From contig CAZMMZ010000003.1 of assembly GCA_964567575.1 (NCBI GenBank), forward strand, positions 4,328 to 68,327: a DNA stretch of 64,000 nucleotides. The letters are read 5' to 3'. The notes beneath the pieces are model-generated. The model was not told the origin of the DNA. It ran no database searches and saw only the letters and a program-made list of their open reading frames with translations. A program made the translations under genes and the position numbers. Shown one piece after another: positions 11,856 to 57,995 of this stretch (within the stretch, counting starts at the first letter, position 1; every line of letters begins with the position of its first letter). The DNA comes from Candidatus Undinarchaeota archaeon. GTDB taxonomy: Archaea; Undinarchaeota; Undinarchaeia; Undinarchaeales; UBA543.

Positions 11856-12251
11856 TTAAACTCTCCTTCCTCTTTTTCCGCCCTTGCGTCTCATTGTGCC
11901 ATGAGCGACTGGAGTGACGTCCTCTATTTTTCCAACGCGCAATCCAGCTCGTGTTAGAGATCGAATAGCTGCTTGTGCGCCTGGTCCTGGTGAGCGGGAT
12001 TTGTTTCCGCCTGGTGCCTTAACGCGAATATCAACATCGTATATTCCTTTACTTTTTAATTCATCAGCTATTTTATTGACCTGTTGCATTGCTGCAAATG
12101 GGCCTGGCTTTTCTCTACCACTTCTAACTACCATTCCACCAGATGTGGATGATATTGTCTCTGCGCCGGTTATATCTGTAACATTAATTATTGTGTTATT
12201 GAAAGAGGAAAAAATATGAATTATTCCTTTCTTGTTTATTTCTTTACTCAT
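11856..12251 (-). CDS. rps11: 30S ribosomal protein uS11
   Basis: [17 protein letters not shown]...[39 protein letters not shown]. Confidence 0.95.
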
Positions 12252-12844: not shown

Positions 12845-12857
12845 CTTTATTTACTCC

Positions 12858-13304: not shown

Positions 13305-13381
13305 ATTATCCCCAATAAAAAGGAATTTAGCGGATTTAAGAGTATCAAACCGTTATATATGCTTTTTGGGACTGCCTCTCT

Positions 13382-14032: not shown

Positions 14033-14034
14033 TT

Positions 14035-15639: not shown

Positions 15640-15681
15640 ACAGTAATACATAAGTACGTAAAATCATATTTAAAGGTAGTG

Positions 15682-30437: not shown

Positions 30438-30812
30438 TTATGCGTTTTTCTTAATTCTAAACAATAACCAATTCTTCGGCCCCGTTTTCTCGAATTTGAT
30501 AAGACAATATTTTCCTTTGAGCTTTTTTCCTTTTAATTCAAAAACCATTTTCCCAGGGGCTTTGCTTTCCATTTCATAAGTTCCGGAATCCCAAATTTTT
30601 ACAGTGCCTTTTCCATAACCTTCTTCAATTGTTCCTTCAAAATTAATATAAGAAACTGCGTGGTCTTCCACTTGCACTGCCAAACGCTTGAGGCCTACTT
30701 GTTTTGGTGGTTGTTTCGGAACTGCCCAGCTTTTCAAAACCCCATTCATCTCCAACCTAAAGTCCCAGTGCAAATTTGTTGCATTGTGTTCTTGTATTAC
30801 AAATCTATTCAT
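30438..30812 (-). CDS. Stand-alone LigD-type 3'-phosphoesterase domain protein
   Basis: FVIQEHNATNLHWDFRLEMNGVLKSWAVPKQPP...KRLAVQVEDHAVSYINFEGTIEEGYGKGTVKIWDSGTYE is the LigD PE-domain signature. Confidence 0.85.
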   Translation of the reverse strand: MNRFVIQEHNATNLHWDFRLEMNGVLKSWAVPKQPPKQVGLKRLAVQVEDHAVSYINFEGTIEEGYGKGTVKIWDSGTYEMESKAPGKMVFELKGKKLKGKYCLIKFEKTGPKNWLLFRIKKNA

Positions 30813-34906: not shown

Positions 34907-35116
34907 ATGACAACTAGAAAAGCACACAAAATCGTGATACAACTCATAATCATACTAGCTTTTGTATTTGGATTAATAGTTGCACTTATTGCACGACAAA
35001 CCGGTAGCTACGAAGTCGGAATAATTTTTGTCGGAGCTGTTCAGATAATAATTCTTCTAGCAATTCTTTATGTACTTGAACATGTTATTGAATTTATGGA
35101 GGTTCATGTTAAATGA
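34907..35116 (+). CDS. Small membrane protein (2 TM helices)
   Basis: 69 aa, hydrophobic, with a 4-nt overlap with the following pilin gene. Confidence 0.45.
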   Translation: MTTRKAHKIVIQLIIILAFVFGLIVALIARQTGSYEVGIIFVGAVQIIILLAILYVLEHVIEFMEVHVK

Positions 35117-35619
35117 AGTCGCATCGCAAAAAAATGCAGAATAGAAAAGGCATAACCCCAATCATCTCAGTTATTCTACTCCTTATGATGACCATTGCTA
35201 TTGCTGGTCTTGCTTATTCCTGGCTTCAGAAAATGCAAGGAAGCATAACAACTTCAACAGAAAACAGGACTGCAGAATTGCTCGGTGGTTTGAAAATTGA
35301 GCTCAAGGTTGATGGTTATTACATGAATTGTACAACTGGTTCTAACTTGACAACCTTCTATGTCAGAAACGCAGGAAGCGAAGCTGCGTCAAATGCGAGA
35401 ATATTTGCTGACGATCAGTTCTTTGTCAATGGTACCGGAGGTACTAACTCGACATACGGAACAATTTCAGCAGGTCAAATGGTAACCTTTGCAATAAATG
35501 CAACCGATGGTTGCAACTTCTTTAATGAAACTCCTAGAACTATCAAAGTTGTCAGTGACCGCTCAACTGTTGAAAAGGCATTCACCTTCACCTGTTCTGA
35601 AGGCAATTGTATAGGTTAA
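35113..35619 (+). CDS. Type IV pilin-like protein (class III signal peptide, KG-type)
   Basis: MKSHRKKMQNRKG / ITPIISVILLLMMTIAIAGLAY: a basic leader, Gly at -1 and a hydrophobic helix, followed by a beta-rich domain with N-x-S/T sequons. Confidence 0.75.
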   Translation: MKSHRKKMQNRKGITPIISVILLLMMTIAIAGLAYSWLQKMQGSITTSTENRTAELLGGLKIELKVDGYYMNCTTGSNLTTFYVRNAGSEAASNARIFADDQFFVNGTGGTNSTYGTISAGQMVTFAINATDGCNFFNETPRTIKVVSDRSTVEKAFTFTCSEGNCIG

Positions 35620-35657
35620 TCGAATTCTAAAACCTTATAACTATCTCAAGATTATCC

Positions 35658-36317
35658 ATGATTATGTATCCTTCTTCGAGAAAAGCGCAGTCTGAAGTTT
35701 TGTCAAAAGTAGTAGTTGTCCTTATACTGTTGGCTCTTTCTTCATTCGCATATACATGGGGTTCAAATCTTATTGAAGCTCAAAAAATGCGATCTGAAGT
35801 TGAGGAAATCCAATCAAAATTTTTAGAATTGAAAACAAAAATCACTGAAGTTGCAAATGCAGGAAATGGCTCTGCAAGATTTGTTGATTTGAAACTCGAG
35901 TATGGTATTCTTTCAATTGAACCTGGCGAGCCTTGCAGTGGAACTGATCCAGATAATAATATGCTTCGCTATGTTCTTTCAACTAAAGATAATTTTGTTG
36001 ATTCTTTAACCTGGGCTCTTTCAGATTCTGCTAATAAAAATCTTAATTGCATAGCTCCTTACGAAAACAGTAGTTCCGGAATTATAATTTCAAAATCCAC
36101 AGTCTCCGAAGGTTTAAGCATGAATGAATATGCGTTGTGGTTCCGCAAATTGAATCAGTCTGGAAATACAAATCAATTTTTAATTAATCTCACAACAGGG
36201 TCAGCAGATTCAGATATGCGTCTCACAGCTGGCTCACATCAAATTCGAGTTGAATCTCAAGGATCTGTCCAAGTCGGCACATCCTCTTACACAAAAGTGT
36301 TGATAAGTGATGTATGA
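35658..36317 (+). CDS. Type IV pilin-like protein (class III signal peptide, KA/Q-type)
   Basis: MIMYPSSRKA / QSEVLSKVVVVLILLALSSFAY: Gln at +1 and Glu at +3, DUF361-like. Confidence 0.7.
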   Translation: MIMYPSSRKAQSEVLSKVVVVLILLALSSFAYTWGSNLIEAQKMRSEVEEIQSKFLELKTKITEVANAGNGSARFVDLKLEYGILSIEPGEPCSGTDPDNNMLRYVLSTKDNFVDSLTWALSDSANKNLNCIAPYENSSSGIIISKSTVSEGLSMNEYALWFRKLNQSGNTNQFLINLTTGSADSDMRLTAGSHQIRVESQGSVQVGTSSYTKVLISDV

Positions 36318-37000
36318 ATTTCAAAAATAAAAAAGCACAAGCAGAATTGATTTCATTTGTCCTAGTTGCAATCATAGTTATTATTGTCGTTCTTGCTTCA
36401 TATGCGTGGGGTTCTCAAATTCTTGATGATCGAAAAGAATCTTATGCAGCTACAAAAATGCGAGATAAAATGTTCGAGATTCGCGAAGCTGTTATGAGTG
36501 TTGCGCAAGAAGGTGCGAATTCAACTCGCGTTGTTTCTGTTATTATTGAAGATGGGAAATTATATCTTGACACGAGTTTCATTCCAGTTTCGTGCGGTCA
36601 GGCGCGGGCAGATAATGGAATTATTTATGAAATTGCAACAAAGGAGCAAATTGTTAATTCAGAATCATGGGCCAATGTTGATCCATATGAAAATGAAACC
36701 GGTGATCTGTGTACTGTTGGCGGTCCATCTCTAAGTTATCCTGGAGTTTTATTTGCACGGCATCGAGGAACTGGTGAAAATGGAAAATATTTGAATCAAT
36801 ATCTACTTTCATTTAGAAATCTCAAGGACATTAGCACCGGCGAGAGTCACATAATCCGCATTGGTTCTTCAGAAATCGGGCAAAACACAACTGGAATTGG
36901 TGAAGGAAAACACAATATTCTTATTCGTAATAACGCGATTACTTTTGATTCTGCAAATTCTCGGTGGACACATGAGATTTCACTGATTTTCGACCCATAA
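36314..37000 (+). CDS. Type IV pilin-like protein (KA/Q-type), paralogue of the preceding gene
   Basis: MNFKNKKA / QAELISFVLVAIIVIIVVLASYAWGSQILD. It shares YxWGSxxI(E/D) and later blocks with 35658-36317. Confidence 0.7.
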   Translation: MNFKNKKAQAELISFVLVAIIVIIVVLASYAWGSQILDDRKESYAATKMRDKMFEIREAVMSVAQEGANSTRVVSVIIEDGKLYLDTSFIPVSCGQARADNGIIYEIATKEQIVNSESWANVDPYENETGDLCTVGGPSLSYPGVLFARHRGTGENGKYLNQYLLSFRNLKDISTGESHIIRIGSSEIGQNTTGIGEGKHNILIRNNAITFDSANSRWTHEISLIFDP

Positions 37001-37046
37001 AGCGAATACACTAAACCTTTTATACTGAAAACGATTATCTCGATTA

Positions 37047-37484
37047 ATGAGAAACTGTAAGGGTGTCAGCACTATTATGGAGCAGGTCTTCATCCTGATG
37101 TTTGGTGTCCTGTTATTGATAACTGTAGTGGTGACATTCTCAGACTTAAAGGACGATACTGTCGAGTACTCGGCAATTCCTCAGTATGAGGCAGTTGCTC
37201 AGCATATGCACGCTGTTGTTATTTCAGCGCAGGAACAAATGCAATTGGCTGAATCAGGATACATCGGCTTCACAATACCGCGTGAAATCGCTGGGAAAAA
37301 CTACATAATGCGTTTCAATAATACGCACATACGGGTTGAGGATTTCCAGCAGGAAATAAACCAGACTGTTCTGCTTGCGCAGAGTAACATAACAGTATCT
37401 GGAAATGTCAGTTCTTCTGACAGCGGAAAAGCACGCGCATATTTCAATACAACTGAAAGGAGTGTAACATTCACAACGATATGA
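37047..37484 (+). CDS. Type IV pilin-like protein (KG-type)
   Basis: MRNCKG / VSTIMEQVFILMFGVLLLITVVV. Confidence 0.6.
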   Translation: MRNCKGVSTIMEQVFILMFGVLLLITVVVTFSDLKDDTVEYSAIPQYEAVAQHMHAVVISAQEQMQLAESGYIGFTIPREIAGKNYIMRFNNTHIRVEDFQQEINQTVLLAQSNITVSGNVSSSDSGKARAYFNTTERSVTFTTI

Positions 37485-39568
37485 ACAGAAACTTCAAGCG
37501 TTTTCTAAAGCATGCGGCAAGCGCCGTGAAAGAGCACCATGATAATGAGATTTTGAAAAAAGCTCACGTTGCTCCAGTTTCACATTCTAAACCAAAACCA
37601 GAAGAAAAACCAAAAGCAGTCGCACCTAAAAAACCAATTAATATTCACGAGGATTTGAAAAAAGAAGGAGTTCCTGCAGAACTCAGTCACAAGATGCACA
37701 AAGTTGTTGAAGATCATCCTGACAGCGATGCAAAAGAAGTTCTTGGTGGTGCAATACAACAAGCAATTGAACACAAGAAGAAAGGGAACATTATGCCAGA
37801 AGGTCTTACAAAGATTGTTGAAGAGGCAGTTGCTGAACAAGAGAAAGGTGTTTCAAAAGAAGAGCTCAGTGATCTTATTTCTGAAATTATGAAATCTGAA
37901 TTGGCAAAAGTTGAGTCAATGAAAACTCATTACAAAGAATCTCATCCTGAAGCGCCAATTGAAGATTCACGCCTTGCAGGTGGAATTCCGGATGTTGCAA
38001 TGCCGGTTCCTTCAACTATTAAGCAAGATATTATTCAAGCAGAATCAAAAGGTCTTGCTGTTGACATAGATCTTACAAAAACCAACATCACGTACCCGCT
38101 TATTTACAGTGGGGGGAAAGTTCATGTTTATGCAAATATCAGATACGATCCAACAATGCATCATTTAACTTTCCGAGTTATTGAACCGCAATTAAGTGCA
38201 GAAGAGCAAAAGCAATTGGCGAAAATTGAGAACACACTTATTGAAGAACTTGAAGTTGATTTCTCAGCTCTCAAAAAACAAACTGCTGAAAAATATCTTT
38301 TTGAAAAAATTAACAGTGTTATTGAATATTACGGAATGAAAATGACTTCGCGCACTAAGGAAATTATGGATTATTATATCAAACGAGATTTCATTGGACT
38401 CGGTCCAATTGAACCGATGTTCCAGGATCTTAATATTGAGGATATTTCCTGTGACGGAACTGGAATTCCAATTTATGTTTATCACCGCGATCCTCGATTC
38501 GGTTCTCTTCGTTCAACAATTTCTTTCAAGGAGGAGGATTCTTTAGATTCATTTGTAATGAAGCTCGCACAGCGGTGCGGCCGTTCGATTTCTGTTGCAG
38601 ATCCTTTGCTTGATGGTGCGCTTCCGGATGGATCTCGTGTTCAGGCCACATTTGGTACTGGCATTTCTATGAAAGGTTCAAACTTCACAATCCGAAAATT
38701 CACTAAAGATCCTCTTACTTTTGTTGATCTTGTAAAGTACGGGACAGTCAGTGCAGAGCTTCTTGCATATTTGTGGCTTGCAATGGAACACAACAAATCA
38801 GTTCTTATTGCCGGACCAACTGCTTCTGGAAAAACAACAATGCTTAATGCGCTCTCGCTTTTCATTCGACCTGAATTAAAAATTGTTTCAATTGAGGATA
38901 CGCCCGAATTGAGACTGCCACATGAGAACTGGATTTCTCAGGTTTCAAGAACTGGTTTCGGCCCTGAGGGAGCTTCTGGAAAGAAGCTTGGGGAGATTTC
39001 GCTTTTCGATTTGCTTAAGGCATCGTTGCGTCAAAGACCAGATGAGATAATTGTCGGAGAGGTTCGTGGTAAAGAGGCGTATGTTCTCTTCCAGCAAATC
39101 GCTACCGGTCACCCTGGTATGAGCACGATTCACGCAGAATCTATGGAAGCTGTTATCAACAGACTTACAACTCCTCCAATTTCTTTGCCAGCAAGTTTGA
39201 TTCAGCACCTTGATATCCTTCTTGTTATGACTCGACAAAGAATGGAAGGAAAATACAAAAGACGAATTAAAGAAGCCGTTGAGGTTATTGGTTACGATAC
39301 AAATAAGGATAGACCGTTCTTGAATATTCCTTATCATTGGATTCCTTCTGAAGATAAATTTGAATATAATGGAAAGAGTGGAATTCTCAAGGAGATAATG
39401 GAAACAATCGGAGCTTCTCCAGAGGGAATTTTCGGAGAAATTGACCGCCGAGTTAAAGTAATTGAGTGGATGGTTCGGTCAGGAATTCGCGATTACAAAA
39501 ACGTGGGCAAAGTGGTGAGTGAATATTACCAGAGCCCGCAAACTGTTCTGGAGAGAATAGATATCTAA
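37481..39568 (+). CDS. Type II/IV secretion-family assembly ATPase (FlaI/EpdL/PilB-like) with a ~200-aa K/E-rich N-terminal extension
   Basis: Walker A IAGPTASGKTTMLNAL, Walker B and Asp box ...PDEIIVGEVRG, His box TGHPGMSTIHA. Confidence 0.9.
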   Translation: MNRNFKRFLKHAASAVKEHHDNEILKKAHVAPVSHSKPKPEEKPKAVAPKKPINIHEDLKKEGVPAELSHKMHKVVEDHPDSDAKEVLGGAIQQAIEHKKKGNIMPEGLTKIVEEAVAEQEKGVSKEELSDLISEIMKSELAKVESMKTHYKESHPEAPIEDSRLAGGIPDVAMPVPSTIKQDIIQAESKGLAVDIDLTKTNITYPLIYSGGKVHVYANIRYDPTMHHLTFRVIEPQLSAEEQKQLAKIENTLIEELEVDFSALKKQTAEKYLFEKINSVIEYYGMKMTSRTKEIMDYYIKRDFIGLGPIEPMFQDLNIEDISCDGTGIPIYVYHRDPRFGSLRSTISFKEEDSLDSFVMKLAQRCGRSISVADPLLDGALPDGSRVQATFGTGISMKGSNFTIRKFTKDPLTFVDLVKYGTVSAELLAYLWLAMEHNKSVLIAGPTASGKTTMLNALSLFIRPELKIVSIEDTPELRLPHENWISQVSRTGFGPEGASGKKLGEISLFDLLKASLRQRPDEIIVGEVRGKEAYVLFQQIATGHPGMSTIHAESMEAVINRLTTPPISLPASLIQHLDILLVMTRQRMEGKYKRRIKEAVEVIGYDTNKDRPFLNIPYHWIPSEDKFEYNGKSGILKEIMETIGASPEGIFGEIDRRVKVIEWMVRSGIRDYKNVGKVVSEYYQSPQTVLERIDI

Positions 39569-39569
39569 G

Positions 39570-40439
39570 ATGGACTTGAAAAAGGAATACAAACAACTTG
39601 CTGCCAGACTTTTTAATACGTTTGTTGATTCTTATCTCTCTAAATTTTCTTGGGTGAAAAAGGATCTTCGTAAAGCAGGTATCAAAATCATGCTTCGGGA
39701 GTATCTTAGTATTGCTTTACTGACAACAATTTTGCTTATTCCAGTTTGGTTTATTGTTATTTTCTTTTTCATGACACTTTTTAGTATTCCAGCGCCGATT
39801 TTGTCAACACTTCTCTTAACAATTCTTTTAACAGGAGGCACTGCGTTTCTTTCTCTAGAATATCCAGCTACAAAAGCAAAAGAGCGCGCGCGGAATATTG
39901 ATAATAATCTTCCTTTCGCTTGCCTTTACATGAACACAATTGCAGGCACTGGCGCTGCTCCCCATCTGATTTTTAAATTCCTTTCTGAATTCAAAGAATA
40001 TGGAGCTGTTTCTGAAGAAGCTAAGAAAATAAATGATGACATTGAAGTGATGGGTGAGGATATTGAAAAAGCGCTTCGCCGCGCTGCTCGCGAAACACCA
40101 TCTGAGAATTTAAGAGATTTGCTTTGGGGTATGATCACTACAATTGTTCAGGGTGGTGATTTGAAATCACTTCTTGATGCAAAATCGCATCACTTGATGG
40201 AAGCGTATCGCCGAAAGCTTGAGGATTTCACTACTAATGTTAGCATGTATGTTGAGATTTACATCACTGTTGTGATTGTCGGCTCGATATTTTCAATTGT
40301 TATGATGACGATTATGGGTGCCATATCAGGTTTCGGAACTTTGCAAGCGTTCCAGACTTTAATGGTTTACGTGTTCCTTCCAGTTGCATCTATTGTATTC
40401 ATATTCCTACTGAGATTAATTTCTCCACTTTCAAAATAA
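39570..40439 (+). CDS. T2SS-F/TadB-like pilus platform membrane protein (one T2SSF domain)
   Basis: LPFACLYMNTIAGTGAAP...ALRRAARETPSENLRDLLWGMITTIVQGGDL flanked by TM helices. Confidence 0.8.
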   Translation: MDLKKEYKQLAARLFNTFVDSYLSKFSWVKKDLRKAGIKIMLREYLSIALLTTILLIPVWFIVIFFFMTLFSIPAPILSTLLLTILLTGGTAFLSLEYPATKAKERARNIDNNLPFACLYMNTIAGTGAAPHLIFKFLSEFKEYGAVSEEAKKINDDIEVMGEDIEKALRRAARETPSENLRDLLWGMITTIVQGGDLKSLLDAKSHHLMEAYRRKLEDFTTNVSMYVEIYITVVIVGSIFSIVMMTIMGAISGFGTLQAFQTLMVYVFLPVASIVFIFLLRLISPLSK

Positions 40440-40440
40440 A

Positions 40441-41316
40441 ATGGCAATAAATCCGTTTAACAAAGAAGAAAGAACCCCTGCAGATAAAGGGGACCTTATT
40501 CTTGGTCTTGAGAAACGGTATGCAGTGCTTATATTTTCTGGGATGGGTGCGGCTTTCACTTTTGTTATGATGGTTCTTTTTGCACCATCTGATATGTTTG
40601 GTTTTTCTGTTGGAGTTGCACTTACTGTTGCATTTGTTCCGTATTCGATTTACGCATACCTTGAAAAGAAAGCAATTATTGACATGGAGAAGAATTTGCC
40701 ATCATTCCTTCGCGATATTGCAGAGTCTAGGAAAACTGGAATGACTTTGCCGCAGGCCTTGTACAAGAGCGCGCAGGTTGATTATGGTAAACTTTCAGTT
40801 GAGTTGAAGAAAATGGCGAATCAGATTTCGTGGGGCGTTCCGTTCCATGATGTGCTTGCTCGATTTTCAAAACGATCAAAAAGTGGTTTCATTCAACGGT
40901 CAATTGCAATTATCATAGAAGCGCAACAAAGTGGTGGAGCTCTTGTTGAAACTCTTGATGCTGTTGCTCGTGATGCACGCATGTTAAAGGAAGCAGAAGC
41001 GGAACGTAAATCAAAATTGAATCAGCAGGCTGTTATTATTTATGCGATTTTCTTTTTGTTCATGATTATTGTTGTGGCTTTGCAGAAACTGATGATGCCT
41101 CTTATTTATTCTAAGGGTTTCGCGCTCGCAACTGAAGATCCAGATCTGATTATCAGCTACTATCAGAACTTATTCTTTTCAATGATTTTAATCCAAGGTC
41201 TTTTCAATGGAATGATTGCAGGGCAAATTGGAGAAGGTTCACCAATTCTTGGTTTGAAGCATAGTGCGATTTTCGTAATTGTGGGAGTGATGGTCTCATG
41301 GCTGTTTATATTTTGA
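40441..41316 (+). CDS. T2SS-F/TadC-like pilus platform membrane protein (one T2SSF domain)
   Basis: LPSFLRDIAESRKTGMTLPQALYKSA...FIQRSIAIIIEAQQSGGALVETLD flanked by TM helices. Confidence 0.8.
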   Translation: MAINPFNKEERTPADKGDLILGLEKRYAVLIFSGMGAAFTFVMMVLFAPSDMFGFSVGVALTVAFVPYSIYAYLEKKAIIDMEKNLPSFLRDIAESRKTGMTLPQALYKSAQVDYGKLSVELKKMANQISWGVPFHDVLARFSKRSKSGFIQRSIAIIIEAQQSGGALVETLDAVARDARMLKEAEAERKSKLNQQAVIIYAIFFLFMIIVVALQKLMMPLIYSKGFALATEDPDLIISYYQNLFFSMILIQGLFNGMIAGQIGEGSPILGLKHSAIFVIVGVMVSWLFIF

Positions 41317-46789: not shown

Positions 46790-49036
46790 ATGAATAAAAG
46801 CAATCAATTGGCACTTTTCTTAGCCATTTTAATTCTAATGTTTGCGACTTTGCCTACTACATTTGCAAGTGAGCAAGTCACAACTGTATATGATGCAGAT
46901 TTGTCTGTTTCTGTATCTGAAATAATTCCAACTACTGTTAATCCATTTGACAGTCAGTATTTTACATTTGAATCAATTCAAATTCGAAACTCTGGACAAG
47001 CTCCGGTTATCTGCAAAATCCCAACTGGACTTGATAATGGTGATGGGAAGATTTCAGAAGATGAATACTGGGCAACTCTTGCATATAACAAACTTGACAA
47101 AGATGGAGATTCATTCCAAGGACTTTTTAATTCATTCATACTTGATGATATTTTTGTAAATGAAGAATCACTTCTTAATGGAATTGCCTTATTGAAAGAA
47201 AAGAAGTTAATCACTGAAGAATCCGCGCTATTCTATACTCGAAAAGAATCTCGGATAACTAGTGGATTCTGCAAAATCAAAATTCTTGATTCTATGCCAG
47301 GACAAGGTTCAAAACTAATAAAAGAATTCACACTTGACAGAAATCTTGCAGCAGGAACTTCTGTTATTCTCTCAACAAAATTCAAGGACTATGTAATTGA
47401 AGGTGCAGGAATGCATAGTATACAAGTTATTGCAGATTATGATAACTTGCTTCTTGAAAAAAACAAGGATAACAATGTTGCAGATCTTCAAATATATGTA
47501 AATGCATTCCAACCGGATTTATTCTTTATGGGGTCAAATAAGATTTATAACCGTGGTCCCGCGCCTATGCTTTGCAACCGGTTCAAAATAAACAAAGGTG
47601 TGTTTGCTCCATCAAAGAAAGCATTTGGTGAAACTCCAAGAACGCGCGTACTTTCATACATGCTTCTTTCTGAAACAATTGCATATGCAGAAGCAAATGG
47701 GCACACGTGGTTCTCTGGCGAAGATATGAGAACGGTGTTTGATTCCTCTGCTATTTTCGAAACTTATTATGATGATTATCCAAACACAGAAAAATACAAA
47801 AACCGCATTTTCGCTTTGTTGTCTGAAAATCTTTTGGATCATGAAAATGTTCATCCTGTTTTGAAACAACTTGGGGGTTCATTCTGGATTGCTGATAATG
47901 TTTTAATAAGAAATTACTGCTGGTTTGGCGATGCTGATACAGAAGAAGATGTTTGCAAAGATCCTATTGCTTTAGATCAAGCTATTGTTAATCCAGGAAG
48001 CTTTGTTCCAATTGGTGGAGTAACTGCTGGTTTCAGTAATGTAAATTGTTTTGCTCTTGAAGATTCCAATCAAGATAATAATCTTTACTCTGAAGGATTT
48101 GAAAATCAATTCATTGAGAATCCATCTTCACTTGAAACCAAAGTCAGTATAAATTTAGAATTGGATAACAAATATTGTGATGGGATTGTTAATGTTTACA
48201 CTTCAACAACCGGAACCGAGTGGGGACTTGTTAATGCGATTCCAACCTGCCCAACTCGACAATGTAATAATATTGACACCGAACTTACAATTTCAAATCT
48301 CTTTAGCTACATTAAATTAGAGAGTAAGACCTGCACTCTTAAAGATTCTTCAATTACAATATTGGATTCAAATTACGGAGATCCATTCACTCGCGTGTCA
48401 GAATATTGTGGTAATAGTTATGGGTGGTCAGTACCACTTAAAGCAGATGATGAAGTAATCCCAATTGACAAATGCTCTCCAAAAATTGTTTCACATATTC
48501 ATTATTTCGGTGGCGGTTCTGAAGGAGTAAATACTGAAAAAGATGCAGTTGTTTATTTAAACACCCCAATTCCTTCAACTTCAAATGTTGAAATTTTAGT
48601 TGACGAGGTTTATGATATTCTTGTGGGTGAACCAACAGACTTTTTATTCCAGTTGAAAAATAAAGGAGTTAAACCAATTGATGAGCTTGATGTTGAGCTA
48701 GAATTTCCAAACGACGCTTGTTTAGATAGCACAACACAAAAAGCCACGATTTTCAATCCTAATAGTCGAAAAGATGTTATCTTTACTTTCGATCTTCCAA
48801 CAATCACTTTTGTTAATAGTTATCCACTCACCATAAATGTGAAACGCGCTGGTTATACTATTGCCAGCAAAGAAGTCGAAGTTCGTATTGTGAAAGATGA
48901 TTATTTACTACTCTATACTATCTATGGATTAATTGGCGTTGCTGCTATTGGTCTTATAGTCATTGTATTGAAATTTACTGGTATTCATGAGAAAATATTT
49001 AAAAAGAAACATAGACGAAAACGTCGGAAGAAGTAA
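46790..49036 (+). CDS. Large (748 aa) secreted protein with CARDB-like beta-sandwich modules, a C-terminal TM anchor and a basic tail
   Basis: Signal peptide LALFLAILILMFATLPTTFA. CARDB-like stretches are DLSVSVSEIIPTTVNPFDSQYFTFESIQIRNSGQAPV and VDEVYDILVGEPTDFLFQLKNKGVKPIDELDVELEF. The TM helix is LLYTIYGLIGVAAIGLIVIVL, followed by KKKHRRKRRKK. Confidence 0.7.
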   Translation: MNKSNQLALFLAILILMFATLPTTFASEQVTTVYDADLSVSVSEIIPTTVNPFDSQYFTFESIQIRNSGQAPVICKIPTGLDNGDGKISEDEYWATLAYNKLDKDGDSFQGLFNSFILDDIFVNEESLLNGIALLKEKKLITEESALFYTRKESRITSGFCKIKILDSMPGQGSKLIKEFTLDRNLAAGTSVILSTKFKDYVIEGAGMHSIQVIADYDNLLLEKNKDNNVADLQIYVNAFQPDLFFMGSNKIYNRGPAPMLCNRFKINKGVFAPSKKAFGETPRTRVLSYMLLSETIAYAEANGHTWFSGEDMRTVFDSSAIFETYYDDYPNTEKYKNRIFALLSENLLDHENVHPVLKQLGGSFWIADNVLIRNYCWFGDADTEEDVCKDPIALDQAIVNPGSFVPIGGVTAGFSNVNCFALEDSNQDNNLYSEGFENQFIENPSSLETKVSINLELDNKYCDGIVNVYTSTTGTEWGLVNAIPTCPTRQCNNIDTELTISNLFSYIKLESKTCTLKDSSITILDSNYGDPFTRVSEYCGNSYGWSVPLKADDEVIPIDKCSPKIVSHIHYFGGGSEGVNTEKDAVVYLNTPIPSTSNVEILVDEVYDILVGEPTDFLFQLKNKGVKPIDELDVELEFPNDACLDSTTQKATIFNPNSRKDVIFTFDLPTITFVNSYPLTINVKRAGYTIASKEVEVRIVKDDYLLLYTIYGLIGVAAIGLIVIVLKFTGIHEKIFKKKHRRKRRKK

Positions 49037-51127: not shown

Positions 51128-52312
51128 TTATCCAGAAACAAGATATGTGCTAGTTGCTTTTTTGATTTTAACATTTACCTTCTCACCTAGTTTATGTGTT
51201 CCTTTTACAACAATTGGTTTGTAAGCGAAATTCCTTCCAATAAAATCATTTTCTTTTCCGTGTTCATCAATCAAAACTTCTCCTTCCCAATTAATCCAAT
51301 CATTGTTTCGTGCTTGTCCAATTTCTTTTACTAATTTAGTTGCTTCGCGACTTCGTTCTTTCTTTGTAATTTCTTCATGCTGTTTCAATTCAGCAGCTGA
51401 AGTTCCAGGTCGTGCACCGTAGCGTGAAATATTTACAATATCTGGTTTAGTTTCTTCAAGCACTTTAAGAGTGTCTTTGAATTCCTGATTCGTTTCACCA
51501 GGGAATCCAACAATAATGTCAGTTGAAATTGTGATTTGAGGAATTTCGCGTTTTACATAATCAATTATTTTTTTATAATCTTCAACAGTGTAAAACCGAT
51601 TCATTTCTTTGAGAATTTTGTTATTTCCAGATTGAATTGGAAGATGTAAGAACTTGAACATTTTTTCGTGCTGCAAAGCTTTGGAAAGAGCAGGTAACAT
51701 TTTCATAGCGTGGTTTGGATTCATCATCCCAACACGCACTTTAAAATCACCATCAAGCGTGCATACTTTCTCAAGCAAATTTGGGAGTGAATTTCCAATA
51801 TCTATTCCATATGCTCCAGTGTCTTGTGCAGTTATCCAAATTTCTTTACACTCATCTTTAATTGCAGTTTCAATTGCATTCAAAATCTTTTCAACAGAAT
51901 AACTTTTGAGTTTGCCGCGAGCAAACCTAACAATACAATAAGTGCATGAACCCAAACATCCTGAAGAAATTGGAATAATTCCTACAAGTTTATTTACGCG
52001 AATGTGTGGACCTTCAAGAACTTCTTCATGCTTAACCCCCCAAATCTCTGCATTCGGAGCAACTTCTTTTATTTTATCTCGTTCTGCTTCAGGCATACAA
52101 CCTGCAACAATTAATTTCTTATTTGAATATTTTTTCAGTGCTTTCAAAATTTTATTTTCAGTTGGGGTTTTGACAATGCACGTATTTACAACAACAATGT
52201 CTGCATCATCTGGAGTTGAAACTTGTTCATGCTCTTCAGCCAAAGCACCAGCTATAGCTTCTGAATCTGCTTGATTCCGAGAACATCCATACGTTTCAAT
52301 ATAAAATTTCAT
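51128..52312 (-). CDS. Radical-SAM methylthiotransferase (MiaB/MtaB/CDKAL1 family)
   Basis: The N-terminal UPF0004 domain has YIETYGCSRNQADSE. The radical-SAM motif is SSGCLGSCTYCIV, and there is a C-terminal TRAM-like domain. Confidence 0.9.
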   Translation of the reverse strand: MKFYIETYGCSRNQADSEAIAGALAEEHEQVSTPDDADIVVVNTCIVKTPTENKILKALKKYSNKKLIVAGCMPEAERDKIKEVAPNAEIWGVKHEEVLEGPHIRVNKLVGIIPISSGCLGSCTYCIVRFARGKLKSYSVEKILNAIETAIKDECKEIWITAQDTGAYGIDIGNSLPNLLEKVCTLDGDFKVRVGMMNPNHAMKMLPALSKALQHEKMFKFLHLPIQSGNNKILKEMNRFYTVEDYKKIIDYVKREIPQITISTDIIVGFPGETNQEFKDTLKVLEETKPDIVNISRYGARPGTSAAELKQHEEITKKERSREATKLVKEIGQARNNDWINWEGEVLIDEHGKENDFIGRNFAYKPIVVKGTHKLGEKVNVKIKKATSTYLVSG

Positions 52313-52370
52313 TTCCTTAACTCACTTGGGTTAATGAACTTTTATAACACTTTCTAAGCGCAGTTTATTT

Positions 52371-54077
52371 ATGTTCTTTAAAAAATCTACTCCAAAAGAA
52401 TCATTTCTGGATTCAAATTTTTCCAGTATAATAAAACCAGACATACTGTTTTTTAAACCAGATCATTCTTTCTTGCAAGGCCAGTTCAATCGGGTTTTAA
52501 TGGCAGTTGGATACCCGCGCGAAGTGCAGGAAGGTTTTATGGATCGATTGATAAGGAGCAAGGATGAATTTGATCTTTCTATTCATATCTTCCCTTCATC
52601 AATTGAAGTGATGCTAATTAATTTGAATCGTTTGCTAAAGAAACTGAATGCAGATAAGTATGCATCTGAAAAACGCGGAGTTATGACTCCTTCACTTGAT
52701 CTTTTAATTAGTGATACGCGAAAAGTTCTTGAAGAAATTCAATCTGGAAAAGAAAAACTTTTCAAAACAAGTTTTTATGTGAATGTAACTGCATTTGAAA
52801 AAAAGGAACTTGATGCTTCAACAAGAAAAGCTGAAGCAATTCTAAATTCTCTTAGTATAGTTCCGAAAAAAGCAACTTTCAAAATGCGCGAAGGATTGCA
52901 AAGTATTCTTCCAATTGCGCGCGATAAATTGAAACAACAAAGGACTTTAACAACATCAGCGCTGAGTGCCTGTTTCCCCTTCACTTCGTCGTTTCTTGAA
53001 TCTGATAATACTGGAGTGATGATTGCAACTAACAAAACAACAGGGATTCCAATAATTCGAGATGTATTCAAACAAACAAATCCTAATTCACTTATTTTAG
53101 GAACTTCTGGCTCTGGAAAAAGTTTTTGTTGCAAATTAATTTTCTTGCGATCTTTCCTTGCAGGCACAAAAGTTTTTGTTGTAGATCCTCAAGCCGAATA
53201 TCTTGATCTAACACGCGTATTGAATGGACAAGTTATTGAAATTTCAAAAGAATCAGATTCAATAATAAATCCTCTTGATTTAATGGGACAAACTCAAGAT
53301 GATAAGCGTCTTTCTCTTTTGTCAGCGTATCGCATAATGTTTCCAAATATCGACAACCAGAGCTTAGCAATACTTGACAAAGCAACATCTCTTGCATATC
53401 AAAACACAAAAACTCCTATTCTCAAAGATTTGTTACGATTTATTAAAAAAGAAAAATCTGAGCGCGCTCGAGATTTGGAATTACAATTAGAGCAATATGT
53501 TTCTGGTGCATTTTCTTTTCTTAATCAAAAAACAAATTTGAATTTTGATAATGAATTCATTTGTTTTGATATTCAGAAAATGCCAACTGCTGTAAAACCT
53601 TTAATGTCGTATTTGATTTTAGAATATCTCTATAACACAATGCAAAAAGATCGTTCGAGAAAAATGCTTGTAATTGATGAAGCGTGGTCTCTTCTAAGTC
53701 ATGCAAATTCTTCTGATTATCTTTTCAAAATTGTAAAGACTTGCAGGAAATTCAATCTCTCGCTTTTTCTAATAACACAAGAAGCAAATGATGTTCTTAA
53801 TAATGATGCAGGAAAATCAATTCTTGCAAATACAAGCTGTAAATATTTGCTAAAGCAAGATGCAAGTGTTATTGATCAGCTTGTGAAATTGCTTGGCTTA
53901 ACCAACAAGGAGCGTAACATTCTTTTGCAAAGTTCTGTTGGGGAAGGGATATTGATAATTGATAGTGAACGTTTTCCTGTTAAAATTCTTGCATCTCCAG
54001 CAGAAGCTGGGTTAATTACAACTAATGCTGATGAACTTCACAAGCGTGAGAAGGAGAAAAAATGTACGACAGAATAG
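52371..54077 (+). CDS. VirB4/TraE-like conjugation-type ATPase (AAA-like, DUF87-related)
   Basis: The N-terminal domain has VLMAVGYPREVQEGFMDRLI...DLSIHIFP (the VirB4 N-domain pattern). Walker A is ILGTSGSGKSF and Walker B is MLVIDEAWSLL, with LFLITQE downstream. Confidence 0.75.
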   Translation: MFFKKSTPKESFLDSNFSSIIKPDILFFKPDHSFLQGQFNRVLMAVGYPREVQEGFMDRLIRSKDEFDLSIHIFPSSIEVMLINLNRLLKKLNADKYASEKRGVMTPSLDLLISDTRKVLEEIQSGKEKLFKTSFYVNVTAFEKKELDASTRKAEAILNSLSIVPKKATFKMREGLQSILPIARDKLKQQRTLTTSALSACFPFTSSFLESDNTGVMIATNKTTGIPIIRDVFKQTNPNSLILGTSGSGKSFCCKLIFLRSFLAGTKVFVVDPQAEYLDLTRVLNGQVIEISKESDSIINPLDLMGQTQDDKRLSLLSAYRIMFPNIDNQSLAILDKATSLAYQNTKTPILKDLLRFIKKEKSERARDLELQLEQYVSGAFSFLNQKTNLNFDNEFICFDIQKMPTAVKPLMSYLILEYLYNTMQKDRSRKMLVIDEAWSLLSHANSSDYLFKIVKTCRKFNLSLFLITQEANDVLNNDAGKSILANTSCKYLLKQDASVIDQLVKLLGLTNKERNILLQSSVGEGILIIDSERFPVKILASPAEAGLITTNADELHKREKEKKCTTE

Positions 54078-54358
54078 ATTTAAGCTCTGCAAAAGCTGTA
54101 GCAAGAAATTTCTCAATGGAATTTCCTACAATAAAAGAAATGCGGTTTAGATTAATGCAAAAAGTAAGTAATGTTTTGCAAAAAGAACAAGGGTTTTTCT
54201 TTTTTGATCAAATCTACGATATTTTTGAAATAGTTTATTGCAATCTTCCAAAGAATATAGTATCTGAACTTGAAGAATGGGTTGAAAAAGATGAGAATAT
54301 AAAATTCATTGAAAAACAAGATGGTTTTTACAAATATGCAGTTATTCCAACAATCTAA
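54062..54358 (+). CDS. Small hypothetical protein translationally coupled to the VirB4-like gene
   Basis: Its ATG lies 16 nt inside the end of the upstream gene. 98 aa, with no TM helix and no motif. Confidence 0.45.
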   Translation: MYDRIDLSSAKAVARNFSMEFPTIKEMRFRLMQKVSNVLQKEQGFFFFDQIYDIFEIVYCNLPKNIVSELEEWVEKDENIKFIEKQDGFYKYAVIPTI

Positions 54359-54360
54359 AC

Positions 54361-54693
54361 TTATTCTTTTTTCTTTTCTTCAGGTTTAGGTTCTTCTGGC
54401 TTTGCTTCTTCAGTAGGTTTTTCTTCTGGTTTCTTTTCTTCTGCTTTTGGTTCTTCTGGTGGTTTTTTTTCTTGTTTAGGAGCTTCTTGTTTTTCTGGTT
54501 CTCCTGTTTTTTCTGTGTAACCACATCCGCCACATGAAATCCTATCTTTGTGAACTGCTAGGAAAACTGCAGGTCCACATTTTGGGCATGTTCTATTTTT
54601 TCGCTCAACTGCCTCGCCTTTAATATTATAATAATTAAATTTGCCTTTGTAATTTCTTTTCTTTCCTGTTTGTTTTTTTGGTGCTTCAGCCAT
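54361..54693 (-). CDS. rps27ae: 30S ribosomal protein eS31 (S27ae) with a K/P/E-rich C-terminal tail
   Basis: [41 protein letters not shown], then about 50 aa of [44 protein letters not shown]. Confidence 0.9.
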
Positions 54694-54698
54694 TTAAA

Positions 54699-55142
54699 TC
54701 ACTCCTTTTTTTCCTCAGCAGGTTTTTCTTCTTCTGGTGCTTCTTCTTTTTTCTCTTCTGCAGGTTTTTCTTCTTTCTTTTCTTCAGCTGGAGTTTCTGC
54801 AGGTTCGCTAAGGTCTACTTTCATTTCTCCACTTGCATCAGGAACATTTGAATCTGTTGTTTTTTCTTTCTTTTCTTTTGGTTGTGGTTCTGTTGCTTTA
54901 AGAGCTTCTTCACTTTCATAGATTTTCACATAAGCTTCAGACTCTTTCATTCCATAAGAAGTTTTTATGCTGTCAAGAACAACAAGTTCTTTATTTGAAA
55001 TATTATATTTTGTACAAACTTTATCCAAAAGTTCGTTCTTTTTTGGTGTTGCAGCTTCTGCAACTACCTTTATTACAAGCTCCTTTCTTTTTAGAAGCGG
55101 GTTTTCTTTTGAACTAATTTCTTCAATTTCCATTTTAATCAC
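54699..55142 (-). CDS. rps24e: 30S ribosomal protein eS24 with a P/A/E/K-rich C-terminal tail
   Basis: ENPLLKRKELVIKVV...NELLDKV...LVVLDSIKTSYGM..SEAYVKIYESEEALK, then about 55 aa of low complexity. An alternative start lies at 55133. Confidence 0.9.
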   Translation of the reverse strand: MIKMEIEEISSKENPLLKRKELVIKVVAEAATPKKNELLDKVCTKYNISNKELVVLDSIKTSYGMKESEAYVKIYESEEALKATEPQPKEKKEKTTDSNVPDASGEMKVDLSEPAETPAEEKKEEKPAEEKKEEAPEEEKPAEEKKE

Positions 55143-55327
55143 TACTGAACAATAAGCGCGTATTCTCCTTTTTCTTTTATTTCAAGTTTTTCTGCAACTT
55201 GAGATTTTTCTGGATTGATTATAACTACAAGCCCTCGCCATCTTGTTGAAAGATCTGTATTCTGACAAATAGGACAAACATTGTCTTCTGTTATTTTTCT
55301 GCAACTTTTACATGCTTTTTTTGTCAT
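55142..55327 (-). CDS. spt4: Transcription elongation factor Spt4 (RpoE'')
   Basis: KACKSCRKI...CPICQNTDLSTRWRGLVVIINPEKSQVA. Confidence 0.9.
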   Translation of the reverse strand: MTKKACKSCRKITEDNVCPICQNTDLSTRWRGLVVIINPEKSQVAEKLEIKEKGEYALIVQ

Positions 55328-55333
55328 TTTATA

Positions 55334-55930
55334 TCACTTCTTTTTCCCTTTTTTCTTGTCGTCTTTCTTTTTGTTATCAGATTTTTCTGTTTTCTTTTCT
55401 TTTTCATCCATCCAGCCGTATTTTCCAAGTCCTGGCTGTCTCATTGTTAAACCAATCTTGTTTTCTTTGCTTTTCTTTAAGCTGATTGTAACAACGCGAG
55501 CTCGTACAAGATCTCCTTGTGAAATGGTTTTCTTTGATTCTTTTCCAACGAATCGTGAACCTTTTTCATCATAGTTTAGGTAATCGTCTGTTATCTGAGA
55601 TACGTGTACTAGACCGTCAAGAGGTCCGAGTCTTATGAATATTCCGAATTCAACAACTTCAATTACTTCACCATCAACAACTTCTTGAAGTTCTGGTTTG
55701 TATGTGAGTACTTTGAAAGTAGCATTGTAAAACGCAGCGCCGTCGCCAGGTATTACTTTTCCAATACCATCGGTTGTAACACCTAGAATTGACACTATAG
55801 CTCCTAAATCTCTGTCTAGTTTGCTCTCATACTTTTCAGCGAGTATCTGTTGTAGTGTTTCTTCAAGTTTGCCGCCGAATTTATCTGGAATGACACGAAC
55901 TGTGTCTTCAATTTCAACTATTTGATACAT
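55334..55930 (-). CDS. rpoE: DNA-directed RNA polymerase subunit E' (Rpo7) with a Lys-rich tail
   Basis: MYQIVEIEDTVRVIPDKFG plus an S1 domain (VVDGEVIEVVEFGIFIRLGPLDGLVHVSQI). The tail is EKEKKTEKSDNKKKDDKKKGKKK. Confidence 0.92.
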   Translation of the reverse strand: MYQIVEIEDTVRVIPDKFGGKLEETLQQILAEKYESKLDRDLGAIVSILGVTTDGIGKVIPGDGAAFYNATFKVLTYKPELQEVVDGEVIEVVEFGIFIRLGPLDGLVHVSQITDDYLNYDEKGSRFVGKESKKTISQGDLVRARVVTISLKKSKENKIGLTMRQPGLGKYGWMDEKEKKTEKSDNKKKDDKKKGKKK

Positions 55931-56012
55931 GATTATTAACCCCCAATTTAAGTGAATATAATAGCTAAGATAAGCACCAAATTGTTCCTCTAGCTGGTTA
56001 TAAACGTTTCGT

Positions 56013-57995
56013 TTATAGGAACAATGGGATGAAAACCAATGCTATGATACTCATTAACTTGATTAAGATGTTTAATGCTGGTCCTGCTGTGTCCTTGAAT
56101 GGGTCTCCAACAGTGTCTCCAACAACTGCATTTTTGTGCACTTCTGAACCTTTTCCACCAAGTTTTCCTGATTCAATGTATTTCTTTGCGTTGTCCCATG
56201 CTCCGCCTGAGTTTGACATCAATAAAGCAAGTAAAAATCCTGAAGCAGTTGCACCTGCAAGAAGTCCGCCGAGTGCTTCTACACCAAGAACAACACCAAC
56301 TGCAATAGGTGAAACAATTGCAATCAAACTTGGTAGGATCATTTCTCTCAAAGCTGCTCGTGTACTGATATCAATACACTTTACATAATCAGCTTCTGCT
56401 TTGCCTTTCATCAAACCTTTAATTGTTTTGAATTGTCTTCGAACTTCCTCAACAATTGCCATAGCTGCATTTCCAACTGCTCGCATTGCGAAAGCTGAGA
56501 ACAAGTATGGTAATAATGCTCCTAGGAATAACCCAACAACAACTTTTGGTGTCATGAGGTTTATCACAGTAAGTCCAACAGTTTGTCCGTATGTGACAAA
56601 TAATGCAAGAGCAGTCAAAGCAGCGGAACCAATTGCGAAACCTTTTCCAATAGCTGCAGTTGTGTTTCCAACAGCATCAAGAGCTTCTGTTCGCTTTCTT
56701 ACATGTCCACCGACTTTTGCCATTTCTGCAATTCCTGCTGCATTATCTGCGACAGGTCCGTAAGTGTCAGCTGCTAGTGTGATTCCAAGTGTTGAAAGCA
56801 TACCAACTGCTGCCATTGCAATTCCGTAAACTCCACTGAATTTGAATGAAACTAAAATTGCAGATACAACGAAAAGAACTGGCAATACTGTGCTGAACAT
56901 TCCAACTGAAAGTCCTGTTATAATGTTAGTTGCTGATCCCATTTTTGATGCAAGCGCAATGCTTCGTACTGGCTTTCTTGTGTCAGATGTGTAATACTCT
57001 GTTGCTAATCCAATTCCAATTCCTGAAACTAATCCTGCAACAAGTGAAACGAATAAGTGATATGTTCCTGTCAAAAACCAAATTGCAATAAATGAAAGTA
57101 CTGCTGTTAGTCCCGCGCTGATGTATATTCCATTATTCATAATGCTGTGTGGTTTTCCTTTCTTCATTGAAAGCACAAAATAACTTCCAAGAACTGAACA
57201 AATAATTCCTATTCCTGCTATAAGCATTGGAAGAAGAACTGCGGTTCCAGCTGTTAAATTAAGTGCACCGAAAGTTACTCCAACAATACCAAGTGCCATT
57301 GCCGCGATAATTGAATCAACATAAGATTCAAACAAGTCTGCACCCATTCCAGCAACATCTCCAACGTTGTCCCCAACATTGTCTGCAATTACTGCAGGGT
57401 TTCGTGGATCATCTTCTGGAATTCCTGCTTCTACTTTACCAACTAAGTCTGCTCCAACATCAGCGGACTTTGTGAAAATTCCACCACCAACACGGGCGAA
57501 CAATGCTACAGAACTTGCTCCGAAACCGAAACTGAATAACATTGAAACATCGCCGAATATTGCGTAAAGAATACTAACTCCAAGCAAACCAAGACCAACA
57601 ACCATTAGTCCCATAACAGAACCACTTGAGAAAGCTACGCGAAGTGCTTTCTGCAAATTTGATCGTGCAGCTTGAGTTGTTCTTACATTTGCAGTTGTTG
57701 CAATCATCATGCCGGCATAGCCTGCAAATGCTGAACATCCTGCTCCAAGAACAAATGATAGTGCGGATAGTCTTGATATTAAGAAAAATAAAACTCCGCC
57801 CATAATAATTACAAAAACAGATAATGTTAGGTACTGCCGCTTTAGATAGGCAGAAGCTCCTTTCTTTATCTTCATAGAAATGTCACGCATCATTGGCGTG
57901 CCATCATTCCGACTCTTTATTTCGCGGACAAGCATGACCGCAAATACAAGAGCGATAATCGCGCTAGTAGGTGCTATCCAATATAATAAACTCAT
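56013..57995 (-). CDS. hppA: Membrane-integral pyrophosphate-energised cation pump (H+/Na+-PPase)
   Basis: [89 protein letters not shown]. Confidence 0.97.

Follow-up and report, generated by a model that had tools for sequence, protein, structure and literature searches.

What is a VirB4-type ATPase doing, together with one small overlapping open reading frame (ORF), among the housekeeping genes of an archaeon? The two genes lie in a 64,000-nt stretch of DNA from a Candidatus Undinarchaeota archaeon (assembly GCA_964567575.1, contig CAZMMZ010000003.1, positions 4,328 to 68,327), called the window below. A first-pass annotation had taken them for an orphan, either a minimal two-gene transfer device or the last remnant of an integrated conjugative element (ICE). 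Our analysis points elsewhere: the pair is probably the displaced 3′ end of a chromosomal operon that resembles a type IV secretion system (T4SS) and is widespread in DPANN-type archaea, with the partner genes on another contig. The genes and motifs of the locus are as follows.

52340-52347 (+): TATA-box-like element TTTTATAA, about 24-31 nt 5′ of the VirB4 ATG in a 58-bp divergent spacer, read from the sequence
52371-54077 (+): gene for a VirB4-family ATPase of 568 amino acids (aa), ATG start; soluble, predicted without a transmembrane helix, corresponding to the C-terminal two-thirds of a split VirB4
53100-53123 (+): Walker A motif GTSGSGKS, VirB4 residues 244-251; aligns with the P-loop of 4ag5 and is kept in the relatives L004, L005 and L006
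53664-53687 (+): Walker B motif MLVIDEAW, VirB4 residues 432-439; aligns with VLVVDEAW of 4ag5 and is kept in relatives
54053-54056 (+): GGAG, Shine-Dalgarno-like, ending 5 nt 5′ of the ATG of the 98-aa ORF, within the 3′ end of virB4
54062-54358 (+): 98-aa ORF, ATG start, with a 16-nt overlap with the 3′ end of the VirB4 ORF

The description of the ATPase held up. Both Walker motifs are present as annotated, and the protein passed the NCBIfam model NF045971 ('VirB4-like conjugal transfer ATPase, CD1110 family') with 331.8 bits, the curated cut-off being 325 bits. The second-best NCBIfam model was the VirB4 of a Mycoplasma ICE (Mbov_0397, 261.6 bits), and Pfam returned P-loop_TraG (107 bits), AAA_10 (79 bits) and DUF87. 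The C-terminal domain of Thermoanaerobacter VirB4 (4ag5) could be aligned over the ATPase domain with an E-value of 1.5e-35, and TrwK of R388 matched with an E-value of 7e-4. Identity to orthologs was 74% in L004, 73% in L010, 59% in L005 and 57% in L006, and the best plasmid VirB4 match had about 29% identity, and the protein is not affiliated with any known plasmid system. The nonsynonymous divergence (dN) was 0.18-0.21 and the synonymous divergence (dS) was saturated for most pairs, which gave a rough dN/dS of about 0.1 (against L010). The same pair of VirB4 and 98-aa proteins was fixed across 11 samples. By these measures, the window ATPase reads as a genuine, intact VirB4-type motor with conserved catalytic motifs. 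The start of the 98-aa ORF 16 nt before the VirB4 stop was also borne out by the ORFs. The motif AGGAGG, similar to the GGAG of the window, precedes the orthologous ORF in L004 and L010, and we infer that the 98-aa ORF is translationally coupled to virB4. From archaeal promoter geometry, TTTTATAA is a candidate for the pair's own promoter, giving a leaderless VirB4 transcript.

The N-terminal end of the protein was a different matter. It had been credited with a VirB4-type N-domain, and the distal part of that domain is present (VLMAVGYPREV is found at residues 42-52 and DLSIHIFP at residues 68-75), but the protein aligned only to profile positions 186-734 of 752 (CD1110) and 285-893 of 894 (Mbov_0397), and roughly the first 185-285 profile positions are missing from the ORF. 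The curated score, the intact Walker A and B motifs and the ATPase domain of a VirB4 are thus all there, and a full N-terminal domain in the same polypeptide is not. Among 983 VirB4 homologs, almost all labelled as archaeon, Nanoarchaeota or Pacearchaeota, most were 740-990 aa long, and many of these carried N-terminal PrgI (VirB3-like) and TraC-like domains. A form of about 570-586 aa was confined to the nearest relatives (57-74% identity). On three long contigs of such relatives (L004, L005 and L006), the short VirB4 gene closes a conserved operon or stands one gene before its end, in the order small AsnC-like ORF, VirB2/TrbC-type pilin (about 110 aa), secreted protein of about 230-250 aa, polytopic TrbL/VirB6-like protein (about 230 aa), N-domain protein (about 285 aa, with PrgI and TraC-like parts) and VirB4, usually followed by a gene of the 98-aa type. 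The N-domain protein fills the missing VirB4 positions, matching positions 3-280 of the Mbov_0397 model and 28-156 of the CD1110 model, and it also matched TrsD (42 bits) and PrgI (31.8 bits). Because this separate protein of about 285 aa matches exactly the positions that are lacking in the window ORF, VirB4 of the window clade is, as judged from the sequences, divided into a membrane-anchored VirB3-VirB4N subunit and a separate soluble ATPase subunit.

The other operon proteins were consistent with this assignment. For the pilin, the Pfam models T4SS_pilin (47.9 bits) and TrbC (35.8 bits) were both matched above their cut-offs, and no NCBIfam Ced model was matched at E<=0.1. A signal peptide and two transmembrane segments were predicted for the pilin, five or six transmembrane segments for the TrbL-like protein, a transmembrane hairpin for the N-domain protein, a signal peptide alone for the protein of about 230 aa, and no transmembrane segment for the window VirB4 and the 98-aa protein; these predicted topologies fit the proposed T4SS roles. 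The core of the operon was also found in the distant DPANN genomes L019 and L038 (on contigs of 885 kb and 409 kb), where VirB4 is mid-length or fully fused. Genes for VirB2, VirB3 and VirB6 components adjoin VirB4 in L004, L005, L006, L019 and L038 and do not adjoin it in the window. L007 and L010 have genes for the N-domain and for VirB4 but no pilin gene nearby. One match to the N-domain protein was labelled Staskawiczbacteria (P0204, 35% identity). The TrbL-like gene of L004 had seemed to be broken; this was rejected as a gene-calling artefact, and a single-frame match (51% over 238 aa) showed it to be intact. Also in L004, the 99-aa gene is succeeded at 10036-10594 by what looks like a toxin-antitoxin pair, a small Fic/DOC protein (120 aa, 24.6 bits) and a 71-aa ORF that overlaps it.

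None of the operon partners was detectable in the window by tblastn with all operon proteins of three relatives. With the N-domain protein of L004 as the query, a 288-aa protein, P0124, was found on other contigs. The gene order on the P0124 contigs is SRP54, 206-aa protein, AsnC-like, pilin, 227-aa protein, TrbL-like and N-domain, and 3′ of the N-domain gene the contigs continue with a convergent polyprenyl synthase gene and then GlmS, TrmB and TatD. This is the synteny of L004 minus its VirB4-99aa-Fic-71aa segment. In nine of the ten contigs, the N-domain gene abuts a convergent gene at the polyprenyl synthase position (sometimes cut short), the tenth ends at the N-domain gene, and none of the ten carries VirB4. 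Conversely, among nine contigs with the 98-aa gene, all that extend past it enter the convergent eS31 gene directly. The intact partner set was present on contigs L013-L016 and L029-L037. A VirB6-like polytopic partner, for which the first-pass annotation had proposed a search, was found in relatives and on the P0124 contigs, and not in the window. In the NCBI records, VirB4 and the 98-aa gene are on a contig of 74,112 bp and P0124 is on a contig of 90,003 bp.

The window pair and P0124 co-occurred as exact proteins in six samples (JGI 3300036767, 3300048645 and 3300035203; SRR10556728 and SRR35531825; ERZ27245248), out of about 10-11 samples per protein. The tetranucleotide correlation between the P0124 contigs and the window was 0.98-0.99, equal to that among the window's own fragments, compared to 0.91-0.96 for the nearest relatives. 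All other short VirB4 lineages with known context have their own adjacent N-domain gene. The window VirB4 and P0124 are each the outlier of their own clade, and the rank order of their relatives is nearly equal. Compared to L004, housekeeping orthologs on the P0124 contigs were 81% (GlmS), 88% (TrmB), 67% (TatD) and 61% (polyprenyl synthase) identical, a spread that includes the 74% identity of the window VirB4, so that the degree of divergence is similar. We infer that the P0124 contigs come from the window's organism. Since the N-domain and VirB4 genes are adjacent or fused in all other lineages, their separation is, by gene order, the derived state, and most likely virB4 and the 98-aa gene left the operon and act in trans. 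The 206-aa gene 5′ of the AsnC-like and pilin genes (1399-2019 in L014) has a segment resembling an M6 metalloprotease (TIGR03296, 42.6 bits, below the cut-off) and about three C-terminal transmembrane segments; L004 has a shorter ORF in this position, and the transmembrane tail is common to both.

The family of the 98-aa protein is tiny, with 12 matches among 1.84 billion representative proteins, and there was no Pfam, NCBIfam or PADLOC match. The orthologs directly follow VirB4 and overlap it in L004 (48% identity) and L010, but in L005 (39% identity) the ortholog is at the operon start, and in L006 it lies 3.8 kb downstream, adjoining polyprenyl synthase. We regard the 98-aa protein as a real, clade-restricted and conserved accessory of the T4SS-like operon. 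Its AlphaFold model (mean predicted local distance difference test score, pLDDT, 89.9) has the layout H-H-H-H-beta-beta, and the top Foldseek matches were mostly winged-helix domains, including forkhead, the ScpA C-terminal winged-helix domain, HlyU/ArsR, Fur and H1, with weak E-values of 0.03-0.3 and template-modelling scores of 0.45-0.6. The C-terminal winged-helix domain of ScpA binds the Smc ATPase head. Most simply, the 98-aa protein would either pair with the ATPase in fixed stoichiometry or serve as an adaptor that binds nucleic acids.

The mid-length and long VirB4 forms (P0010-P0120), which at 700-1000 aa make up most of the DPANN homologs, end in a C-terminal tail of about 170 aa (for example, residues of about 815-980 in P0013) that the VirB4 of the window clade does not have. 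In an alignment of these forms, the residues H62, D89, E102, E104 and G106 of the tail were invariant. The tail gave a marginal match to the Pfam CoiA-nuclease family CoiA_nuc, and its model (pLDDT 94.9) had its best structural matches among proteins of the PD-(D/E)xK type, namely YaeQ, Cdn1, Hjc, PspGI and OkrAI. A literature search returned no description of a VirB4-nuclease fusion. The lengths of the three short proteins do sum to that of a long form (285 + 570 + 98, about 950 aa), and the 98-aa protein was considered as the detached C-terminal domain of long-form VirB4. This was rejected: the hidden Markov model (HMM) search was empty, the profile-profile probability was 0.1%, and the folds differ (winged helix versus PD-(D/E)xK).

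In established T4SSs, VirB4 docks on VirB3, VirB6 and VirB8, where it powers the extraction of pilin and the growth of the pilus (R388 structures, 7o41). On our reading of the pair as a displaced operon end, an ancestral operon would have encoded the AsnC-like protein, the VirB2/TrbC-type pilin, the secreted protein of about 230 aa, the TrbL/VirB6-like protein, the VirB3(PrgI)-VirB4N fusion, the VirB4 ATPase and the 98-aa winged-helix protein. The last two genes would have been relocated as a block to the site between the methylthiotransferase gene and the eS31 operon, where they acquired, or came to sit behind, their own TATA-like promoter, and the other five would have kept the ancestral site beside polyprenyl synthase and GlmS. 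The soluble ATPase could then assemble as a hexamer on the membrane-anchored VirB3-VirB4N made in trans and, with the VirB6-like channel protein, use ATP to extract the VirB2-type pilin from the membrane. The extracted pilin would be polymerised into a conjugative-type pilus or a conduit, and the co-translated winged-helix protein may bind the ATPase or a nucleic-acid substrate. Because no relaxase or coupling protein was found among the genes screened, the role of the system is, by analogy, likely to be contact with a partner cell, or the exchange or uptake of macromolecules from it, and classical plasmid conjugation is unlikely.

A wider proposal joins these observations to the long VirB4 forms, and as a whole we consider it tentative and rather doubtful. 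It holds that DPANN archaea have a conserved, mostly chromosomal, pilus-forming, T4SS-like machine for nucleic acids, an archaeal counterpart of the T4SS that Patescibacteria need for epibiosis. In most lineages, VirB4 would have VirB3 joined to its N-terminal end and a PD-(D/E)xK nuclease-like domain to its C-terminal end. In the clade of the window, VirB4 would have been split into separately encoded modules and the nuclease tail lost, with the winged-helix protein taking over the handling of the DNA or RNA substrate. The machine would serve the acquisition of nucleic acids from the host, or contact with it, and would be vertically inherited; dispersed loci would be tolerated because it is a vertically inherited core function.

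Several points weigh against the pair being a displaced operon end. The linkage of the P0124 contigs to the window's organism is circumstantial, and no single assembly with both loci was found when a chimeric query of P0124 and VirB4 was run against GTDB representatives, a set without this genome, and against JGI metagenome contigs, in a scanned collection without these samples. The query returned only unrelated matches (L017, 49%; L018, 34%). The promoter and the translational coupling are deduced at the level of motifs, and the predicted winged-helix fold of the 98-aa protein comes from Foldseek matches with weak E-values. Moreover, the wider VirB4 family may be partly mobile, with conjugation as a possible ancestral role, to judge from the Fic gene, the weak integrase match and the metal-resistance cargo beside some long-form relatives. 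The T4SS-like clusters of L038 (GCA_038121585.1, 409-kb contig, 1-16200) and L019 (1-6500) lie beside genes for multicopper oxidase, cupredoxin, Cu-ATPase and cation efflux; the L038 cluster is also near Fic and a weak integrase-like match, and the L019 cluster is near DNA methyltransferases. These long-form clusters may be integrated elements, and archaeal integrated conjugative elements are a plausible origin of the whole family. L017 (JAWODG010000196.1, 7.7 kb, 65% GC), binned to a Brocadiia metagenome-assembled genome, encodes at 7043-7726 part of a VirB4 with 49% identity to the window protein; this planctomycete-bin VirB4 could be a case of misbinning or of cross-domain transfer of this VirB4 type.

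The surroundings of the pair are as follows.

35113-41316: archaeal type IV pilus locus with a flagellin-like pilin, a PilB-type ATPase and two T2SSF proteins, about 11 kb 5′ of virB4
51128-52312 (-): methylthiotransferase gene (UPF0004/Radical_SAM/TRAM), the 5′ flank, divergent from virB4
54361-54693 (-): eS31, with a long K/E/P-rich low-complexity C-terminal tail
54699-55142 (-): eS24, with a tail of the same kind
55334-55930 (-): Rpo7, with a tail of the same kind

The flanks thus agree with the first-pass annotation, a divergent methylthiotransferase gene on one side and, convergent with the pair on the other, the genes for eS31, eS24, Spt4, Rpo7 and an H+-pyrophosphatase. Apart from the type IV pilus locus, the remaining window is housekeeping (mevalonate pathway, Trm1, TFB, thermosome and RFC), and the pair lies in core chromosome. 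The claim of the first-pass annotation that relaxase, coupling protein, integrase and flanking repeats are missing nearby also stood, for the larger window ORFs that were screened (ORFs of less than about 200 aa were mostly unscreened) and in a repeat scan, in which no repeat pair bracketed virB4 and the 98-aa gene. The tracts coding for the K/E/P-rich tails of eS31, eS24 and Rpo7 account for every 'repeat family' near the locus. The only tRNA in the window is at 24.7 kb, 27 kb from the pair, and the GC content of the pair (0.33-0.35) is like that of the neighbouring sequence. A mobile-element signature at the insertion site was rejected, as there are only low-complexity repeats, without a nearby tRNA or integrase. 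No relaxase or VirD4-type coupling Pfam family was found among the called genes of L001-L006, L013-L015 and L019 either. The SRP54-domain protein of L014 has an acidic, proline-rich N-terminal extension resembling the tails of eS31, eS24 and Rpo7.

The best surviving alternative, although improbable, is that the pair is a true orphan after all. Its partners would have been lost, P0124 would belong to a co-occurring relative, and the pair would be a decaying ICE remnant or would have been recruited for another ATP-driven job. This would account for a 64-kb window without any partner gene and for the circumstantial linkage to P0124, with no single assembly found to hold both loci. It would also be in keeping with the repeated fragmentation of the operon in relatives, L007 and L010 having the N-domain and VirB4 without nearby pilin genes, and with the integrase-like gene and Fic near the long-form relative L038. 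However, the motifs are intact, VirB4 is 74% identical to an ortholog within a complete operon, its dN/dS is about 0.1 (low dN against saturated dS), and an identical protein pair is fixed in 11 samples. VirB4 would have no membrane anchor if VirB3-VirB4N were missing. A complementary operon lacking VirB4 occurs in six common samples; its composition matches, its phylogenetic position is congruent, and it stands in conserved chromosomal synteny. The site has no integrase, repeat or tRNA, as far as the larger window ORFs are concerned. Neither half of the first-pass reading is supported by these results: the pair is hardly the last remnant of an ICE, and it is probably not a minimal two-gene device either, given that the N-module, pilin, VirB6/TrbL-like and secreted proteins adjoin VirB4 in L004, L005 and L006 and are intact on the P0124 contigs.

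It is very unlikely that the pair is a minimal transfer motor of its own that cooperates with the type IV pilus locus at 35-41 kb. The locus is real, at a distance of about 11 kb upstream, and there is a precedent in Sulfolobales, where Ced DNA import needs the Ups type IV pili (as cited in PMC12102498). However, unrelated genes lie between the two loci (RFC subunits, a surface protein, a prenyltransferase and the methylthiotransferase), and the genes that accompany VirB4 in relatives are always those for a VirB2-type pilin and a VirB6-like protein of its own and not type IV pilus genes. The Ced models scored far below their cut-offs with the window VirB4 (NF041017 CedB, 57.7 bits, cut-off 700; NF053655 CedD, 41.4 bits, cut-off 600), and the affinity to CedB and Ted is therefore weak.

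A two-gene anti-phage or anti-plasmid defence module, with a HerA/MADS-type ATPase and a small DNA-binding protein, was rejected as having a negligible probability, although the PADLOC model mad8 (74.4 bits, E 2.8e-21), weak HerA matches and the winged-helix fold suggested for the partner protein by weak Foldseek matches speak for it: the ATPase match is generic, beside a far higher score with the VirB4-specific model (331.8 bits, above the curated cut-off), the 98-aa protein has no PADLOC match, defence partners are absent next door, and the orthologs sit inside pilin/VirB6/VirB3 operons.

Other features of the window were noted in passing. Two big predicted surface proteins are candidate adhesins of a host-associated cell. 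One (46790-49036, +, 748 aa) has a signal peptide, a weak CARDB match, a C-terminal transmembrane segment and a K/R tail, and the other (24829-26565, -, 578 aa) has a bacterial Ig-like domain. Near the N-terminus of a 538-aa protein (14035-15651, -), the Mrr_cat restriction-endonuclease domain was matched with 23.8 bits. A stand-alone gene for a LigD_N 3′-phosphoesterase (30438-30812, -, 129.8 bits) lies 22 kb from the window virB4, and in the sister lineage L007 its ortholog (3132-3524, 73% nucleotide identity) is directly 5′ of the N-domain and VirB4 genes. The block eS31-eS24-Spt4-Rpo7-(PPase)-H+-PPase, where PPase is pyrophosphatase, borders T4SS-like genes in both L006 (891-5006) and the window (54361-57995): at one end in L006, where it diverges from the start of the operon, and at the other end in the window, where it converges with virB4 and the 98-aa gene. 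Either chance or a former linkage may be behind this.

For DPANN archaea, which live in dependence on other cells, little has been described of the devices at the cell-cell interface. The isolated-looking VirB4 belongs to a widespread DPANN system that parallels the relaxase-less T4SS of Patescibacteria, and the window pair alone would be a relocated subunit of a recognisable system. Because the machine appears to be encoded in pieces at separate loci, calling a gene an orphan from one window is unsafe in this lineage. The split also offers separately expressible modules, namely the N-domain, the ATPase and the winged-helix partner, and the nuclease-fused long VirB4 forms hint at a nucleic-acid substrate.

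Compared to known systems, the window VirB4 has the ATPase core and motifs in common with VirB4/TrwK of R388 (PDB 7o41) and with 4ag5. Unlike the R388 system, the present system is of the monoderm type and reduced, and its N-terminal VirB4 domain comes from another gene. The Ced and Ted systems of Crenarchaeota import DNA (PMC9905601). They, too, are archaeal and chromosomal and derive by reduction from a T4SS, having kept a VirB4-like ATPase, a polytopic membrane protein and a VirB2-like pilin but no relaxase. The window VirB4 is much nearer to bacterial monoderm VirB4 than to theirs, and by analogy the present system resembles Ced and Ted more distantly than it resembles the T4SS of Patescibacteria. 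Nanohaloarchaeal giant SPEARE-type proteins with VirB4 domains, which were returned by the literature search, have a different architecture.

The best HMM matches of the window VirB4 were to the Gram-positive MPF-FATA/FA systems (the CD1110-type ICE, the Mbov_0397 Mycoplasma ICE and TrsC-TrsD-TrsE of pGO1/pIP501). There, too, a TrsD-like part of VirB4 is separate from the ATPase part, and because the N-domain protein matches TrsD and PrgI, the split in the window clade follows a natural division of VirB4. In contrast to these systems, no relaxase, VirD4-type coupling protein, integrase or plasmid context was found here among the genes screened, and identity to the best plasmid VirB4 is only about 29%. 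Flanking direct repeats, a tRNA target and atypical composition, as expected of a conjugative element, are absent as well. Gram-positive T4SSs generally have no VirB2/TrbC-type pilin (PMC10633639), whereas the present system has one.

The best functional analogue, because no relaxase or coupling protein was seen here or in the related loci, is probably the T4SS of Patescibacteria (described in Microb Genom 2025, PMC12102498). That system combines pilins with the lack of both relaxase and coupling protein, and epibiotic growth requires it (PMC10633639, PMC12102498), as was shown in Southlakia epibionticum (Cell 2023, PMC10633639). The parts are the same: a monoderm (MPF-FATA-like) VirB4, a TrsD-like VirB4-N piece, PrgI/VirB3, a VirB6-like protein and one or more VirB2-like pilins. 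Both systems are chromosomal and belong to ultrasmall, host-dependent organisms. The window VirB4 and the TrsD, PrgI, VirB6-like and VirB2-like pilin components of the P0124 locus together make up the Patescibacteria-type component set as defined in PMC12102498. The two systems also differ. Here the host is archaeal, PrgI/VirB3 and the VirB4 N-domain form one protein (no VirB3-VirB4 fusions were found in Patescibacteria; PMC12102498), the ATPase gene lies apart from the others, a single pilin gene stands where Patescibacteria have arrays, a clade-specific accessory with a predicted winged helix is present, and most DPANN relatives have the nuclease-like VirB4 tail. The literature search found no description of a DPANN VirB4/T4SS operon. 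Current Pfam and NCBIfam models recognise the parts of the operon, and for Patescibacteria a close analogue has already been published; what is newly seen is an archaeal, relaxase-less and pilin-bearing T4SS-like system with modular VirB3/VirB4, a relocated ATPase gene and a clade-specific partner predicted to be a winged-helix protein.

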